Source: an uncultured Gammaproteobacteria bacterium
GTDB lineage: Bacteria > Patescibacteriota > Patescibacteriia > UBA9934
Assembly (NCBI GenBank): GCA_964344145.1
Contig: CAYFME010000008.1
Span: 1,913 to 65,912, forward strand
Direction: 5' to 3'
Length of the DNA: 64,000 nt
Part shown: piece after piece, positions 1 through 64,000 of the stretch
How positions within the stretch are numbered: the stretch's first letter is position 1
How the letters are laid out: every line of letters begins with the position of its first letter
Position numbers and translations under genes: made by a program
The notes under the pieces: model-generated
The model's database searches: none
Told to the model about the DNA's origin: nothing
The model's input: only the letters and a program-made list of their open reading frames with translations

Positions 1-644
1 TCCGTCTCGTAGCTGGAGAAGGCCTCGGCGTCCGGCGGCGGGTTGTAGTTCGGGCAGCCGGCGAAGCTCTCGTCGTAGGGCACCGGGATGGGCGGGGCCT
101 CGAGGCTCCCCAGACCGGTGCTCGTGTAGCCGGAGCGGGTCCGGACCGTCGGCTCCGTGGGCGCGCGGCCGTCGTGGAGCTCGGTCTGGATGCGCTTGAT
201 CTCGCCGCGCACGGTCTCCAGCTCGCCGGAAGCCTGCGTGTAGGTCGCGGCCGCCTGGATGCCGGAGCGCTGGGCCTCCTCCATGGTCTCGCTCTGCGCG
301 GCGACGATGCCTTCCAGGTCCTGGACGTACGCGTCGTGGGCGGTACGCACACCGGGCTCCTCGGGCGGATCGCCCAGGGCGACCATGGCGTCGGTGGCCT
401 TCTTGTGCTCGCGCCAGGCGGACTCGTAGTCGCCGATGGCGCTCGCGCACGTGGCGCTCGCCTCGCCGCGCGTGGCCAGGAGCGTGGACTCCTGCGCGCG
501 CAGGTCCTCCAGGTAGGCCTGGTTCGCGGCGCGCACGCTGACCTCGTAGGTCTCCGTCGCCTCTTCGACGGTCTCGGGGTTGTCGTTGTTGCCGTCGGCC
601 GCGAAGGCCGGGGCGGTGATCAGGGAAAGGGCGATGAGCAGCAC
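1..644 (-). CDS. Secreted/signal-peptide protein, C-terminally truncated by window edge (GTG start at 644)
   Basis: Minus-strand frame open from GTG 644 to position 1 with an in-frame TGA just upstream. About 97% GC3 codon bias. N-terminal hydrophobic signal VLLIALSLITAPAFAADGNN followed by an A/E-rich region. Missed by the ORF track because no stop falls in the window. Confidence 0.55.
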   Translation of the reverse strand, partial: MLLIALSLITAPAFAADGNNDNPETVEEATETYEVSVRAANQAYLEDLRAQESTLLATRGEASATCASAIGDYESAWREHKKATDAMVALGDPPEEPGVRTAHDAYVQDLEGIVAAQSETMEEAQRSGIQAAATYTQASGELETVRGEIKRIQTELHDGRAPTEPTVRTRSGYTSTGLGSLEAPPIPVPYDESFAGCPNYNPPPDAEAFSSYET

Positions 645-866
645 GGCTCAGGTCCTCATGGGTTTTGGCGCTTATCGCAACGGGCTAAGGATAGGTCCAT
701 CCGTCCGAGTCAGCATCTCAGACTAGCACGAAACGGCCGTACTGTCAACCCGTGGCTGACAAAGCACGAACCCCGCCGGCATGCGCGAGGGCATGGGCGG
801 GGCACAGGCCAGATACTTTTGGAAGCTACTCAACGCGAGGTCGAGAAGATTTCAGAAATGCCTGGA

Positions 867-1388
867 CTAGTTGGAGGTGGTTGCGACACGGGTGTCGACT
901 TCGTGAACGACGCGGAACAACGTCGCTTCCTTGGCCTGGGGTGGCTTGGGATACAGGCCGTCGTCGAGGAAGTTCTCGAGACATGCTCCGAGCTGTCGAT
1001 CTCCCTGGAAGGAGCCACCGTTGGCGCGTCCGGATGGGCTGACGACGAGCTGCGCCTCTACGAGCATGAACTCGCGACGAGTCTTGAGTCCCGTACCCTG
1101 GGCGCACGCCTTGATGGCGTCTCCCTTCTTGTCCAGCACGTCGTTGACGACCTTCTCGACCTCTGCCGGATCGACGTAGCCGTCGACGTACAACATCTCA
1201 CTGTACCAGCCGCGGTAGTAGTCGGGGATCGGCTCAGGCTGATGATCTTCGGCCGGAAGCGTCTCGTGTTCGTCGAGTCGCTTGGTGAGGGTCTCGAGCT
1301 TGACCTCCAGCTCGATGACGCGGTCCTCGAGGGTTCCTGCCATCGCAAGGGTCGTGCCCATCAGGGCAACGATGATCCAATATCGCAT
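867..1388 (-). CDS. Secreted coiled-coil protein (hypothetical)
   Basis: ORF 867..1427; internal ATG at 1388 preceded by AAGGAGAAG RBS; signal peptide MRYWIIVALMGTTLAMAG; heptad-like ELEVKLETLTKRLDE. Confidence 0.6.
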   Translation of the reverse strand: MRYWIIVALMGTTLAMAGTLEDRVIELEVKLETLTKRLDEHETLPAEDHQPEPIPDYYRGWYSEMLYVDGYVDPAEVEKVVNDVLDKKGDAIKACAQGTGLKTRREFMLVEAQLVVSPSGRANGGSFQGDRQLGACLENFLDDGLYPKPPQAKEATLFRVVHEVDTRVATTSN

Positions 1389-1464
1389 GCTTCTCCTTGT
1401 GTTGCAGGCGTGTCCTGACTGTAGCACAGCGGACTAACGAGACTGCCAGAAAATGGCGTCTTTG

Positions 1465-2148
1465 TCAACCCTCGGATCGTTTGTCCGACTGCTCTTTGCG
1501 CCACTTGGCGATTTCTTTGTGATTGCCTGAGAGTAGGACTGACGGAACGGTTAGCTTTTTTCGTTTGAGTCCATCGCGCAACGAGTACTCTTCAGGCTTT
1601 GTGTATTGCGGGTACTCGAGCACGCCCGGTTCGCTGTGGGATTCTTCTTTAAGCGACATCGCCTCGCCAAGCACGCCTGGTACAAGTCGCGCAATGGCAT
1701 CGCTCATGACCATGGCTGGCAGCTCACCACCGGTAAGGACGTAGTCGCCGATCGACAGACTTTCGTCGGCGATGTGTTGCTCGACTCGGGCGTCGACACC
1801 TTCATAGCGTCCGCAGATAAAGATCAGCTGGTCGTATTTGGACAGGCGTTTGGCGTCTTGCTGAGTGAAGCGCTTCCCGCTGGCAGCTGTGAGAATCACG
1901 CGAACTTTCTTACGACGTTTCTTGACCTTGCGCACCGCGCTATCGATCGGTTGGACGGTCATCACCATGCCAGGTCCTCCGCCGTAGGACGTGTCATCGA
2001 CCTTACCATGTTTGTCTTTTGAGAATGGACGAAGATCGTGCGCTTCAATCGCAATTAGTTTCTTCTTTTGCGCACGTCCAAGAATCGACTCGCCCATGTA
2101 GGCGTCGATGGTTTTTGGAAATAATGTGATGATGTCGAAGTGTTTCAT
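1465..2148 (-). CDS. trmD: tRNA (guanine37-N1)-methyltransferase
   Basis: MKHFDIITLFP...YGGGPGMV...LSGNH motifs typical of TrmD; TGA stop. Confidence 0.9.
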   Translation of the reverse strand: MKHFDIITLFPKTIDAYMGESILGRAQKKKLIAIEAHDLRPFSKDKHGKVDDTSYGGGPGMVMTVQPIDSAVRKVKKRRKKVRVILTAASGKRFTQQDAKRLSKYDQLIFICGRYEGVDARVEQHIADESLSIGDYVLTGGELPAMVMSDAIARLVPGVLGEAMSLKEESHSEPGVLEYPQYTKPEEYSLRDGLKRKKLTVPSVLLSGNHKEIAKWRKEQSDKRSEG

Positions 2149-2210
2149 AGAAGTAGTGTAGCAGACGAACAAAAAACCACGCTCGAGAGTGTGGTTTTTT
2201 GTTTTGTTGT

Positions 2211-2585
2211 TTAGAAGGTGAGGTCGTCGACTGAGGACGTGTCCATCTCTTCATCATCGGATCCTGTGTCCTCGTCGTCCGCTGGTGCGGCAGCTGCGGC
2301 TGCAGCTTTCTGTGCGAGGTGCTCTTGGCGGGATCCTTCTGGCTCGTAAATTTTCAGGTTTACGCGCGCGTTGTTGCGAGCTCCGATTTTCTTGAGAAGC
2401 GTTCGGATTGCGCGTGCGGTCTGTCCCTGTCGTCCGACCACGTAACCCATGTCTTCTGGGTTGATGTGGAGGGTGATGAGGACTCCGCGCTCGTCTACGG
2501 TTCGCTCGGTCTTCACGTCATCCGGGTGGTTGACGATCGCGCGAACGATGTACTCCGCAAACTCTTGATCAAATTCCTGTGCCAT
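2211..2585 (-). CDS. KH-domain RNA-binding protein (KhpA/YlqC-like) with acidic C-terminal tail
   Basis: FAEYIVRAIVNHPDDV...VVGRQGQTARAIRTL, a GxxG KH motif, and a conserved position between rpsP and trmD. Confidence 0.75.
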   Translation of the reverse strand: MAQEFDQEFAEYIVRAIVNHPDDVKTERTVDERGVLITLHINPEDMGYVVGRQGQTARAIRTLLKKIGARNNARVNLKIYEPEGSRQEHLAQKAAAAAAAPADDEDTGSDDEEMDTSSVDDLTF

Positions 2586-2654
2586 ACGGTACTTAGAGTT
2601 TCTTGAATTATCTGCCTTCATTCTAGCAAAGCGATGAGAGCTGTCAAAGCGGGC

Positions 2655-62685: not shown

Positions 62686-62762
62686 TGGTGCGGCGTGAGG
62701 GATTCGAACCCCCGACCTTCTGGTCCGAAGCCAGACGCTCTATCCAGCTGAGCTAACACCGC
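62686..62762 (-). tRNA. tRNA-Arg (anticodon UCG)
   Basis: Minus strand GCGGTGT-TA-GCTC-AGCTGGATA-GAGC-G-TCTGG-CTTCGGA-CCAGA-AGGTC-GGGGG-TTCGAAT-CCCTC-ACGCCGC-A-CCA. Confidence 0.9.
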
Positions 62763-62812
62763 GTATCAATTGCGTCCAGACTATAGATCAGAAAAGACGT
62801 TCGGTCAATGAT

Positions 62813-62841
62813 TTGACATCTGCTTAGAAAACCGCTAGAAT
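62813..62841 (+). promoter_or_regulatory. Consensus sigma70 promoter TTGACA-N17-TAGAAT driving the downstream tRNA-like RNA
   Basis: Exact -35 hexamer, 17-nt spacer, TAGAAT -10. Confidence 0.6.
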
Positions 62842-62962
62842 TTACTTAAGCCGAACGAAGTTCTTCCACGAACTAAATTTTGGATGACGCAAATACGACT
62901 CCCTACAATTGTAGAGGAGTTGTTTTTGTTTTAGCGCCTCGGGCCGGATTCTGGGCTCGTGG

Positions 62963-63040
62963 AAGTAATTGGTAACTTCGTTCGGTTCGTCATCCGTAAG
63001 TTGCGGGTTCGAATCCCGTCGAGTCCACCATGGTCCGAGA
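62963..63040 (+). ncRNA. tRNA-like RNA ending CCACCA (acceptor stem, D-arm, T-arm intact; anticodon stem non-pairing)
   Basis: GGGCTCG-TG-GAAG-taattggtaa-CTTC-G-[ttcgg ttcgtca tccgt]-aagtt-GCGGG-TTCGAAT-CCCGT-CGAGTCC-A-CCA; the anticodon loop would read CGU, but the stem has only 1 Watson-Crick pair plus 2 G.U wobble positions. Confidence 0.35.
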
Positions 63041-63082
63041 TCAAACACCCCGTCATCCGGCGGGGTGTTTGGTGTCAGTGAC

Positions 63083-63896
63083 TTAAACCTGTACTAGTAT
63101 GACTTCGTATGGAATCGGTATCGTGAAGCCGTTTTCAGATGTAGTGAATGACCCACGCCGCTCTTCGGGTGTGTTGAGAATGATTTCTCGCATTTCTGCC
63201 AGCTGCTTTGCTGACAATGAATAGCGTTGCGCGAGATTGTTTGATGAACAGTCCCAACGTTTCGCTGCGCCTAAGTGTTTAACAGTTGAGAAGTGTTGTC
63301 TTAACACCGAGAGATTTTCCTCGATACTCATTAGGGTTAGTTGTTTGCCAACGATTCTGCTAAGAGTCATAAACAGATCCATCTGGTTGGGATCCTGAAC
63401 GAATAGTTGAAATAAAGCGTAACCGCCAGGTTTTATTGAGTGACGAATATTTTCCAACAAGACATGCATTTCATCGAGCGAGAAATAATGGAGAAGGGAT
63501 CGAACGAGCCCGAGATCAAAACGAGGCTCGACATCCAACTCGAGCAAGTTTGCCCGAATCTTCTTTGTTTCAACATTCTCATTGGCGTCTAGATGCTCTT
63601 GTACGGCATCAATCAATGTGAGGTGCACTTTGTGATCGTTTGAGTAGTTTCTCGACGAAGAATTCCCCGAGATATCCGTCAGCAGATCCGAATTCGACCA
63701 CCTCGATCTCTTGAGGGAGGTCGGCTTTGTTTTGTTCAAACAGCTGCCACAAACTCTCGGCGGCATCTGGATTCGCAAAGTATTCCTTATTGTGTCCGCT
63801 CCACTGACCCCAGACTTTTCGATCTGCAAGTAGATTTGATTGGTTTACTGATGACATGAACACAACATAGCCCACTCGAATGCATTTGTTAATCAC
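63083..63896 (-). pseudogene. Class I SAM-dependent methyltransferase interrupted by a frameshift (two overlapping ORFs 63609-63896 and 63083-63829)
   Basis: The upstream ORF carries motif I VVEFGSADGYLGEFF; the downstream ORF carries KVHLTLIDAVQEHL...IKPGGYALFQ; the frames differ by 1 nt around 63620-63660. Confidence 0.55.
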
Positions 63897-64000
63897 CGGT
63901 TGACTGCGAAGCGTCTTTTTCTTAAGCTAACTATAGCTCACGGAGAGCTTTCAAGGAGGTCCAACCATGCTCGGCTTTGTCCGCGCTCCCGATTCGGCCG

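Follow-up and report, generated by a model that had tools for sequence, protein, structure and literature searches.

The whole stretch of DNA analysed here (64 kb, hereafter the window) is a mosaic, in which ten small islands of accessory genes, together about a quarter of the DNA, resemble bacteria with 70% GC in both composition and codon usage. We favour, with modest confidence, the reading that this mosaic is native and conserved and is kept by a gene-specific process favouring GC, since the islands are syntenic and GC-elevated at saturated divergence and their per-gene GC3 offsets recur; three of the 17 high-GC genes (plus island neighbours) were traced outside this genome, and the reading is extrapolated to the rest. 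At least two islands are GC-rich at the same sites in distant relatives, which is hard to account for by plain import with neutral decay afterwards.

Composition of the Window

The high-GC class comprises 17 of the 57 genes (GC 0.61–0.72, mean 0.662; GC3 0.76–0.98, mean 0.857; Table 1), which are grouped in ten separate runs with a total length of 15.6 kb (24% of the window; 28% of its coding DNA). The remaining 40 genes, hereafter the backbone, have a mean GC of 0.521 and a mean GC3 of 0.589 (sd 0.063). This agrees with a preliminary description of the sequence, which had reported high-GC genes within a backbone of about 50% GC, as do the sliding GC profile, which ranges from 0.42 to 0.68, and the bimodal per-gene GC3, for which a two-component mixture beats a single component (BIC −64.7 vs. 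−55.7). The mosaic goes on beyond the window end with two further small genes at GC 0.65–0.69. That the high-GC genes are genuine reading frames is shown by their OPT, PNP, PP2C, Pkinase and GGDEF domains, all of which lie in frame; a Pfam search gave no family for 12 of the 17 genes, and none of the 17 is a universal informational gene. The same description had seen an enrichment for secreted, lipoprotein and membrane functions, which was not borne out when we scored any strongly hydrophobic 15-residue stretch (7/17 high-GC genes vs. 17/40 others, p = 1), although this test is crude, misses both lipobox lipoproteins and covers no signalling functions.

Table 1. Features of the window, in order of position.
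Feature	Position	Strand	GC	GC3	Remarks
High-GC secreted hypothetical	3..647	-	.72	.96	Partial at window edge; signal peptide; no match in Pfam and NCBIfam searches
High-GC hypothetical	867..1427	-	.61	.77	No Pfam match
OPT oligopeptide transporter, high-GC	3327..5318	-	.67	.93	Pfam OPT, 1.6e-85
Purine-nucleoside-phosphorylase-like, high-GC	11361..12227	-	.66	.86	Pfam PNP_UDP_1; NCBIfam PNP matches weak, under cut-off
DGR target gene, high-GC	15447..15923	+	.65	.89	Variable region (VR) 15792-15921
DGR template repeat (TR)	16267..16396	+			88% identity to VR
DGR reverse transcriptase, low-GC	16851..17795	+	.46		Pfam RVT_1
High-GC lipoprotein	28422..29429	+	.63	.76	Lipobox LAAC; no Pfam match
PP2C phosphatase, high-GC	29982..30686	+	.67	.84	Pfam PP2C_2
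tRNA-Glu(UUC)	30797..30871	+			Flanked by high-GC PP2C gene and low-GC Fic gene
Fic gene, low-GC	30931..32013	-	.41		Pfam Fic_N/Fic/SoFic_C
High-GC secreted protein	35399..36070	+	.68	.91	
High-GC Ser/Thr kinase	36102..37832	+	.65	.76	Pfam Pkinase
Paralog A, high-GC	37937..38929	-	.65	.84	
Paralog A2, high-GC	39067..40050	-	.68	.85	33% identity to paralog A
Acidic lipoprotein, high-GC	41860..43098	-	.68	.98	Two tandem beta-sandwich domains
120-aa secreted ORF, high-GC	43232..43594	-	.71	.88	Gene call there in ENA assembly
151-aa membrane ORF, high-GC	43707..44162	-	.67	.80	
481-aa hypothetical, high-GC	49705..51150	-	.65	.88	No Pfam/NCBIfam match
GGDEF protein, high-GC	59341..60297	-	.66	.79	Pfam GGDEF
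175-aa hypothetical, high-GC	60485..61012	+	.65	.88	

GC1, GC2, the Gly+Ala+Arg+Pro content and R/(R+K) are all raised in the high-GC set compared to the rest (Mann-Whitney p about 1e-6 each), as is the GC of the spacers internal to islands; this points to a pressure at the DNA level. One could suppose instead that the high-GC genes form a regulon tuned to the tRNA pool or to expression level, their GC being a by-product of C- and G-ending codons, and a preference for C-ending codons is indeed seen (fourfold C is.52 for islands and.26 for the backbone; island twofold C/(C+T) is.88), as is the conservation of per-gene offsets across lineages. However, GC3 is lowest in the ribosomal protein genes (.47–.62 for S16, L32 and S1), which speaks against translational selection as the cause, and codon selection leaves unexplained the shifts in GC1, GC2, the Arg/Lys ratio and the spacers. 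Nor would one usually expect high abundance of the kinase, the phosphatase, the GGDEF protein and the transporter in the set, and we consider such codon selection improbable.

Source Genome and Assembly Integrity

The backbone housekeeping genes are of the CPR type, and the best relatives of GyrA are from Peribacteria (58%) and Gracilibacteria (56%), which points to a Peregrinibacteria-like CPR bacterium near these two groups as the probable source. Independent assemblies of two sequencing runs (ERR2281800 and ERR2281801), consisting of four ENA MEGAHIT contigs and of Logan contigs, match the window at 99.96–100% over 27.9–43.7 and 46.6–64 kb, where 9 of the 17 high-GC genes lie, and reproduce every GC junction within these intervals. 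This refutes, for the two intervals, the suggestion in the preliminary description of a chimeric or mis-binned assembly, in which reads of a high-GC organism would have been joined onto a CPR contig. Its sole support is the composition itself, plus Logan contig breaks near the paralog A genes, whereas the ten alternations in 64 kb, each coinciding with a gene boundary, are unlike the pattern of a chimera, and relatives from unrelated projects show the same mosaic; for the window as a whole, we regard a chimera as extremely improbable. In summary, the window represents part of a CPR (Peregrinibacteria/Peribacteria-like) genome and is correctly assembled, the agreement between assemblies covering 27.9–43.7 and 46.6–64 kb. 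With the junctions reproduced and islands GC-elevated at conserved sites in relatives, it is the other option named at the outset, an intrinsically heterogeneous native genome, that matches the data.

Over 33 kb there are 11 strain differences, ten of which sit in two tight clusters within island genes; the secreted protein gene has a cluster of six at 35800–35820. The two clusters hint at recombination at island genes (two events).

Islands in Related Genomes

In four relatives (L094, L096, L098 and L099), the secreted protein and kinase genes (plus paralog A) lie between the genes of a 166-aa protein and TsaD, with an island GC of.54–.69 against a backbone GC of.44–.52; the secreted protein gene is kept and GC-elevated in all four, and the paralog A orthologue in L094 has 73% identity. 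A syntenic homologue of the acidic lipoprotein gene adjoins PilB in L114 (GC3 of.75 vs. a backbone GC3 of.30–.40). In every lineage with the kinase island or the acidic lipoprotein, those genes are GC-richer than the local backbone, and the relatives sharing these sites have a backbone GC of 0.42–0.52. The fourfold identity of the backbone to the window is.26–.28 for L096,.18–.25 for L098 and.25–.30 for L114, where about.21–.25 is random, and island GC4 across these saturated splits is still.57–.95. Judging from gene order and divergence, the kinase island (secreted protein, kinase and paralog A) and the acidic lipoprotein appear to have been in place before the split from the saturated relatives. 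Among the few backbone genes dating the deep split, AI-2E and S15 show an unexpected degree of divergence, a hint that recombination blurs that dating.

In the window, L094 and L096 (backbone GC 0.48–0.52), the logit(GC3) offsets are gene-specific and alike, being +1.9/+1.6/+2.1 for the secreted protein gene and +0.7/+0.7/+0.8 for the kinase gene; those of paralog A are +1.2/+1.1. A caveat to the native reading is that the L098 offsets are much smaller (+0.6 and +0.4), with the rank order unchanged.

Origin of the Islands

The nearest relatives of the window OPT (66–72% identity) are on non-CPR contigs of uniformly 70–74% GC, and the window copy nests within their clade, all five sampled members of which are on such contigs. 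This placement supports the view that the window OPT is a xenologue, imported from high-GC (70–74%) non-CPR bacteria. The donor-type contigs are uncultured and carry sigma-54, PilS and two-component genes; NCBI labels one clade member Oligoflexia. The RSCU of the islands correlates with that of the donor contigs (.92–.97) and of the window OPT (.97). The preliminary proposal of acquisition from a high-GC donor therefore holds for OPT, but repeated recent acquisition does not account for everything, given that the kinase island and the acidic lipoprotein are syntenic and GC-elevated in relatives at saturated divergence. That most islands ultimately derive from an old transfer out of high-GC bacteria is plausible, direct support coming only from OPT.

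The main rival to the native mosaic is the slow amelioration of old imports, by which a single high-GC lineage, perhaps the host, would have donated all islands at different times and these would now be at different stages of neutral decay, a scenario that we see as possible, albeit rather unlikely. Besides the OPT clade and the donor-like RSCU, it is favoured by the 'high-GC' amino-acid make-up of the island proteins and by the fourfold A+T, which is graded from donors through the window OPT, the other islands and the relatives' islands to the backbone, a pattern of ongoing amelioration that is also a caveat to the native reading. It is further favoured by gain/loss dynamics, as L094 lacks the acidic lipoprotein and also paralog A2, which is unique to the window among the relatives compared. 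Another caveat is the shallow window-L094 split, for which a slowly decaying relic fits about as well with an ancestral GC4 of about.86. Speaking against a pure relic, the island GC4 of that ancestor was not near 100%, since A/T at island fourfold sites is common to both about twice as often as by chance (49 vs. 23.6, p = 9e-11).

However, the islands are syntenic at saturated divergence, where the backbone turnover predicts a deviation of at most 26–39% of its start, and the secreted protein gene (GC4 of.88–.93) and the acidic lipoprotein gene (GC4 of.95) would need more than 100% GC at the split. Decay also conflicts with the stable offset differences within one island, where the kinase is always below the secreted protein gene, and with the high-GC islands of the window, at which no integrases, flanking repeats or tRNA sites were found. 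Among 5.8 billion proteins, full-length homologues of the kinase number only two; both come from syntenic relatives, and there is none in any high-GC organism or outside the lineage. The acidic lipoprotein is a member of an acidic lipoprotein family, and its acidic, Lys/Arg-poor make-up is that of the envelope proteins of its own backbone. The shared loci might also have been filled by independent gains, or their genes renewed from high-GC members of the clade, as the L104 and L113 contigs encode, at 61–64% GC, a homologue of the 166-aa protein.

Under the native mosaic, the island genes would be at their own GC-rich equilibrium, with a fixation bias towards G/C acting on these genes and their spacers on top of the mutational bias of the lineage. 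The most likely cause may be GC-biased gene conversion at recombination-prone accessory loci, and an alternative would be that the GC or codon content of the island genes is under selection.

DGR and Fic Loci

All 15 mismatches between the VR and the TR of the DGR are at TR adenines. For the reverse transcriptase and the Fic gene, previously put at 42% and 38% GC, we measured 46% and 41%. The Fic gene is probably a small tRNA-targeted insertion, since it borders on the 3′ end of tRNA-Glu on one side and on an imperfect 16-nt repeat at 32196 on the other.

Comparison with Known Systems

The model of Lawrence and Ochman reportedly describes horizontally acquired genomic islands undergoing compositional amelioration. 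As in that model, housekeeping genes of the window alternate with gene-sized blocks whose GC and codon usage are atypical, some blocks occur in certain relatives but not in others, and the OPT block has its nearest relatives in another, high-GC bacterial group. Unlike such islands, those of the window are GC-rich rather than AT-rich and come without mobility genes, flanking repeats or tRNA sites, and two of them are syntenic at saturated divergence, unconverged and with their gene-specific offsets kept.

GC-biased gene conversion is said, by Lassalle et al. in 2015, to raise GC3 in recombining bacterial genes. The window islands resemble this in that GC is up in all three codon positions and in the neighbouring spacers, in accessory genes that seem prone to recombination, and in that the offset, on the logit scale, stays roughly constant as the backbone composition varies. 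On the other hand, the GC3 shift is +0.15 to +0.40, compared to reported bacterial effects of a few percent of GC3, and recombination is hinted at here only by the two clustered patches of strain differences; we know of no documented shift this large by bacterial biased gene conversion.

CPR episymbionts also exchange genes with their hosts, one example being Saccharibacteria with Actinobacteria. To our knowledge, this CPR lineage has no known host, and, unlike in such transfers, most window islands have no detectable donor homologue. Like these cases, however, the window is part of a CPR genome with a transporter from a very different, high-GC bacterial lineage, and salvage and uptake functions (OPT and the nucleoside phosphorylase) are among its atypical genes.

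GC mosaicism of the window

The window, which is part of a 66,650-bp NCBI contig, has an overall GC content of 55.4%, with repeated swings between 0.42 and 0.68 in its 1-kb GC profile, and the mosaic pattern extends past the window end. We built a set of 57 genes by combining the ORF list with Pfam matches and with the genes called in public assemblies. As the preliminary description had claimed (at least 17 high-GC genes in a backbone of roughly 50% GC), 17 of these genes have a GC content of 0.61-0.72 and a GC3 of 0.76-0.98, against a mean GC of 0.521 and a mean GC3 of 0.589 in the 40 backbone genes. 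The mean GC3 is.86 in the islands and.59 in the backbone, and its distribution is bimodal (BIC -64.7 for a two-component mixture vs. -55.7 for one component). The shift is not confined to third positions: GC1 (.67 vs..60), GC2 (.46 vs..37), the Gly+Ala+Arg+Pro content and Arg/(Arg+Lys) are all raised in the high-GC set (p ~1e-6 each). The high-GC genes form 10 separate runs (15.6 kb in total, 24% of the window), interleaved with the backbone genes trmD, rpsP, SMC, ClpP, TsaD/TsaE, PilB, FtsH, S1, GyrA, L32, NusB and RNase III. The Fic and reverse transcriptase genes do lie below the backbone, as had been described, but slightly less far than stated (0.41 and 0.46, respectively). An enrichment of the high-GC set in envelope proteins was not borne out by a hydropathy test (7/17 high-GC vs. 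17/40 backbone genes), which is crude, misses both lipobox lipoproteins and says nothing on the signalling part of that claim.

The backbone gene content is compatible with a small CPR genome, with GyrA as the single marker behind the assignment; among species-representative genomes, GyrA is closest to one MAG each of Candidatus Peribacteria (58%) and Gracilibacteria (56%), with many phyla coming next at 48-52%. The window also has a complete urocanase gene (hutU) of backbone GC, a catabolic enzyme that one would not usually meet in a CPR genome. Acidic secreted proteins abound in the backbone too, several of them being extremely acidic (see the table), a composition that would be consistent with a marine or saline habitat.

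Features of the window and matching contigs of second assemblies (positions in the window)
Feature	Position (strand)	Remarks
OPT transporter gene	3327-5318 (-)	GC3 0.93
Acidic backbone secreted proteins	5953-10076, 14604-15227, 20889-26114	Asp+Glu 0.17-0.31, Lys+Arg 0.02-0.05
Diversity-generating retroelement (DGR)	15447-17795	VR 15792-15921 at 3' end of target gene; TR 16267-16396
Stretch lacking a credible ORF	19700-20888	1.19 kb, between clpP and VanW-domain gene
tmRNA-like match	20250-20320 (-)	tRNA-like part; Rfam 30.5 bits (gathering score 47)
Fic gene region	30797-32251	tRNA-Glu-end repeat at 30863 and 32196
AI-2E and S15-peptidase block	32252-34352	fourfold identity to L094 0.29-0.33
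Secreted protein gene	35399-36070	
Variant cluster 1	35800-35820	six substitutions in 21 bp
Ser/Thr kinase gene	36102-37832	
Variant cluster 2	37529-37565	four substitutions in 37 bp
Paralog A gene	37937-38929	
Paralog A2 gene	39067-40050	window only
TsaD, TsaE, PilB, hyp339 and FtsH block	40148-49340	fourfold identity to L094 0.46-0.54
Acidic lipoprotein gene	41860-43098 (-)	GC3 0.98
Urocanase gene (hutU)	52747-54774 (-)	
Single variant in gyrA	58838	
tRNA-like gene	62953-63030 (+)	four-base anticodon (cgtc); Rfam 40.4 bits
Contig L001 (ERR2281801, 37.9 kb)	50.7-64 kb	100% identical
Contig L002 (Logan)	51.9-60 kb	100% identical
Contig L089 (ERR2281800, 42.5 kb)	46.6-64 kb	99.994% identical
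Contig L090 (28 kb)	27.9-43.7 kb	99.975% identical
Contig L091 (27 kb)	27.9-42.6 kb	99.959% identical

GC junctions of the covered intervals recur in second assemblies

The possibility that the mosaic reflects a chimeric or mis-binned assembly was examined with ENA MEGAHIT and Logan contigs from two runs of project PRJEB17505, retrieved via exact-protein look-ups. Seven such contigs (L001, L002 and L089-L093), produced by two assemblers from two runs, are 99.96-100% identical to the window over 27.9-43.7 kb and 46.6-64 kb, and all GC junctions within these two intervals recur in them. For these intervals, this contradicts an assembly artefact: the mosaic is real and, where the second assemblies reach, native, and it is also conserved.

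The assemblies differ at 11 positions in a 33-kb overlap, and 10 of these lie in two tight clusters within island genes. The cluster in the secreted protein gene alters three residues (LASATYE to QASANYT), and no template for this variant patch was found within the window; the other cluster lies in the kinase gene. The clustered differences look like short conversion tracts, of which there are two events only.

Retroelement, Fic gene and RNA features

In the DGR, which is apparently active, VR and TR share 88% identity, with every one of the 15 mismatches at a TR adenine. Its reverse transcriptase gene (46% GC) and its target gene (65% GC) are tied by the VR/TR pair; hence, the composition differs even inside one functional unit. 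The low-GC Fic gene has the 3' end of a tRNA-Glu on one side and an imperfect 16-nt copy of this end on the other (GGGTCACCAA..), which suggests a small tRNA-targeted insertion that carries no integrase. The repeat is, however, so short that it could be due to chance. At the corresponding position, the relative L094 has a different low-GC ORF (130 aa) flanking its AI-2E gene.

The stretch between clpP and the VanW-domain gene may hold an atypical or permuted ssrA: it contains a sub-threshold Rfam tmRNA match, and ARAGORN found no tmRNA. For the tRNA-like gene near the window end, the ARAGORN prediction implies an 8-nt anticodon loop, and its Rfam score compares with 67-70 bits for the two other tRNAs.

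The OPT transporter derives from high-GC bacteria

Homologues outside the genome were searched for three of the 17 high-GC genes (OPT, kinase and lipoprotein), the remaining 14 being classed by composition alone. About 30 homologues of the OPT transporter were found, at 61-72% identity. In a neighbour-joining tree, the window OPT is sister to the homologues P0012 and P0013, within the clade that these homologues form. All five clade members whose contigs were examined (P0012, P0013, P0015, P0020 and P0023) lie on uniformly 70-74% GC DNA, in contigs of up to 534 kb, where the OPT genes have a GC3 of 0.96-0.98. These contigs bear sigma-54 activators, PilS, type IV pilus genes, two-component systems, and MopE and FG-GAP proteins, a content that marks them as non-CPR; one member carries the NCBI label Oligoflexia. 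The bacteria of the OPT clade include the assemblies GCA_964620495.1 and GCA_964599085.1. The nesting of the window gene in this clade therefore indicates a transfer of OPT from a high-GC bacterium into the CPR genome, and its status as a xenologue is well supported. For this gene, the acquisition from a high-GC donor put forward in the preliminary description is supported, and the transfer is a concrete lead to a possible partner of a CPR lineage without known host. Amino-acid composition was dropped as a proxy for donor GC, as the OPT proteins of 70% GC contigs have an R/(R+K) of only.34-.58.

One JGI metagenome (3300009703, Ga0114933), which serves as a reference dataset in a 2026 paper on Santorini caldera sediments, contains a 72% GC bacterium with a donor-clade OPT (L084) as well as a distant relative of the window lineage (L103, with the 166-aa membrane protein that flanks the kinase island 48% identical and AI-2E 60%); this co-occurrence is anecdotal. 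In another distant relative (L110/L111, positions 10550-13486; 166-aa protein 42% identical), an OPT-like gene of GC 0.61-0.64 adjoins the 166-aa protein gene in a backbone of 0.52-0.55, and an ORF whose N-terminus is HTH-like, probably an insertion sequence, has been inserted into it and cuts it in two.

A local tblastn of all window proteins against the retrieved loci gave nothing beyond OPT, PilB and FtsH, and scans of viral contigs for the 481-aa hypothetical, GGDEF and PNP proteins found no relatives. A plasmid tblastn for PNP gave Sinorhizobium matches at 26-27% only, which are uninformative on taxonomy, and NCBIfam matched none of nine high-GC proteins lacking a Pfam match, the PNP-like protein having sub-cut-off matches only.

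The kinase island and the acidic lipoprotein are syntenic in relatives

Only two of 5.8 billion proteins match the Ser/Thr kinase over its full length (65% and 43% identity), all other matches being to the kinase domain alone. Both lie in syntenic context, in the relatives' loci L094 and L096, with a shared order in which AI-2E transporter, (S15 peptidase) and 166-aa membrane protein are followed by the island with secreted protein, kinase and (paralog A), and this by TsaD, TsaE ... PilB, 336-aa protein, FtsH; full-length homologues of the kinase thus occur in syntenic relatives only. The island genes of L094 and L096 have 62-69% GC (GC3 0.71-0.91) in a backbone of 48-52%. Two further loci emerged when metagenomes were scanned with aligned sequences of the 166-aa protein: L098, whose secreted protein and kinase genes have a GC of 0.54-0.56 in a backbone of 0.44-0.45, and L099, with a fragment of the secreted protein gene at 0.66 in a backbone of 0.53. 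The island was thus found in each of the four relatives with sequence at this site, and it is old and conserved. The backbone around it diverges unevenly from L094, the AI-2E and S15-peptidase block far more than the TsaD-FtsH block (see the table, which gives both blocks), which suggests, at the level of fourfold sites, that recombination may have given neighbouring backbone blocks separate histories.

For the acidic lipoprotein, an exhaustive profile-free search found 113 relatives, of which the best-scoring 50 are acidic and Lys/Arg-poor, most with an N-terminal lipobox cysteine, the same acidic composition as that of the window genome's own backbone envelope proteins. The top match (47%) lies on a contig (L114) of the NCBI MAG GCA_030688135.1, where it adjoins a PilB 70% identical to that of the window and a hyp339 homologue; among the contexts examined, this is the one homologue with backbone genes around it, and it is a syntenic relative, a second one (L116) being on a 3-kb contig that has no backbone genes. 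In L114, the lipoprotein gene has a GC of 0.58 and a GC3 of 0.75, compared to 0.41-0.44 and 0.30-0.40 in the backbone; L094 lacks the gene. An AlphaFold model of the lipoprotein (pLDDT 85) has two tandem beta-sandwich domains, and a fold search with it gave generic tandem beta-sandwich matches only, with low TM scores.

Codon usage of the islands

C-ending codons dominate in the islands: the third base at fourfold sites is C 0.52, G 0.30, A 0.06 and T 0.11, compared to C 0.26, G 0.30, A 0.22 and T 0.21 in the backbone. The RSCU of the islands correlates at 0.92-0.97 with donor-type high-GC contigs, at 0.97 with the window OPT and at 0.63 with the backbone. Spacers follow the same pattern (GC 0.56-0.70 inside islands, 0.37-0.55 between backbone genes). 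The ribosomal protein genes have the lowest GC3 (S16.47, L32.49, S1.62; ClpP.54), which argues against ordinary translational selection. An ORF and Pfam survey of the window found no integrase, transposase, tRNA site or flanking direct repeats at the high-GC islands.

The main rival to a lasting bias is slow amelioration of islands that were imported long ago, with re-acquisition as a further possibility. Its best argument is the gradient of fourfold A+T, which rises from the donors (~0.02-0.07) through the window OPT (0.12), the other islands (0.19) and the relatives' islands (0.27) to the backbone (0.43).

Two GC-rich islands outlast synonymous saturation

Amelioration was assessed at the fourfold-degenerate sites of conserved residues, a dating that rests on few genes. 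Between the window and L096, L098 and L114, the identity at backbone fourfold sites is 0.26-0.28 (random ~0.25), 0.18-0.25 (random ~0.21-0.23) and 0.25-0.30 (random ~0.24-0.25), respectively, and the sites are at or near saturation. Under an F81-type model, a single exponent governs the loss of site identity and that of compositional deviation; from the upper confidence limits, at most ~0.34-0.39 of the initial deviation is calculated to be left per lineage, and hence the GC4 of the islands would today be expected to be at most ~0.7, even from a 100% start. The secreted protein gene (0.93 in the window, 0.88 in L096) and the lipoprotein gene (0.95 in the window; 0.71 in L114, against 0.25 in the L114 backbone) exceed this ceiling despite backbone saturation, which speaks against slow amelioration; the kinase has 0.75 and 0.73. 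In the window, L096, L098 and L114 together, island GC4 is.57-.95 and backbone GC4.25-.70, again for few genes.

The deviations also recur gene by gene. The logit GC3 offset is +1.9, +1.6 and +2.1 for the secreted protein gene in the window, L094 and L096, and +0.7, +0.7 and +0.8 for the kinase; for paralog A it is +1.2 in the window and +1.1 in L094. The L098 offsets are smaller (+0.6 and +0.4), with the rank order unchanged. At the island fourfold sites of the window and L094, common A/T is twice as frequent as expected by chance (49 vs. 23.6, p=9e-11), and the site-level autocorrelation (~0.3) is alike in island and backbone; therefore, the islands co-diverged with their flanks from an ancestor that was not near 100% GC4. 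A slow decay that began at a GC4 of ~0.86 could also account for this pair when it is taken alone. With that exception, and for few genes, island composition did not converge on that of the host genome as synonymous divergence grew. In summary, two islands, the kinase island and the lipoprotein, predate synonymous saturation and have kept a high GC content, with offsets particular to each gene, so that plain acquisition from a high-GC donor, which accounts for OPT, does not extend readily to these syntenic genes.

A proposed lasting GC-rich compartment and its possible causes

Tentatively, and with somewhat more doubt than belief, we propose that a marine CPR lineage holds an accessory subset of its genes at its own lasting GC-rich equilibrium, which would make for a stable bacterial genome of two compartments, maintained either by unusually strong GC-biased gene conversion at particular loci or by selection connected with life alongside a high-GC partner. 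The subset would include the surface lipoproteins, the secreted protein, the kinase and the DGR target, with GC3 logit offsets of ~+0.7 to +3.4 that would be repeatable gene by gene in the closer lineages and outlast synonymous saturation; the partner may be the OPT donor. Less broadly, it is slightly more likely than not that a persistent fixation bias in favour of GC acts on the island loci. Its most likely source is GC-biased gene conversion in accessory genes prone to recombination, which fits the shift at all codon positions and in spacers, the roughly constant logit offset and the clustering of variants; the alternative would be selection on the GC or codon content of the island genes. 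High-GC members of the wider clade may also have contributed genes, since two loci (L104 and L113) have a 166-aa protein homologue of 61-64% GC. Within the library searched, no paper turned up on this compositional pattern or on biased gene conversion in Patescibacteria, which is not proof of absence.

If composition is indeed held gene by gene for this long, the dating of transfers by amelioration is unsafe. The locus would also be a natural case in which GC-biased gene conversion and selection in bacteria could be tested against each other with unusual clarity. Genes of atypical composition are routinely read as recently transferred or as MAG contaminants and would be discarded by decontamination tools; the island genes are atypical, yet native, syntenic and old.
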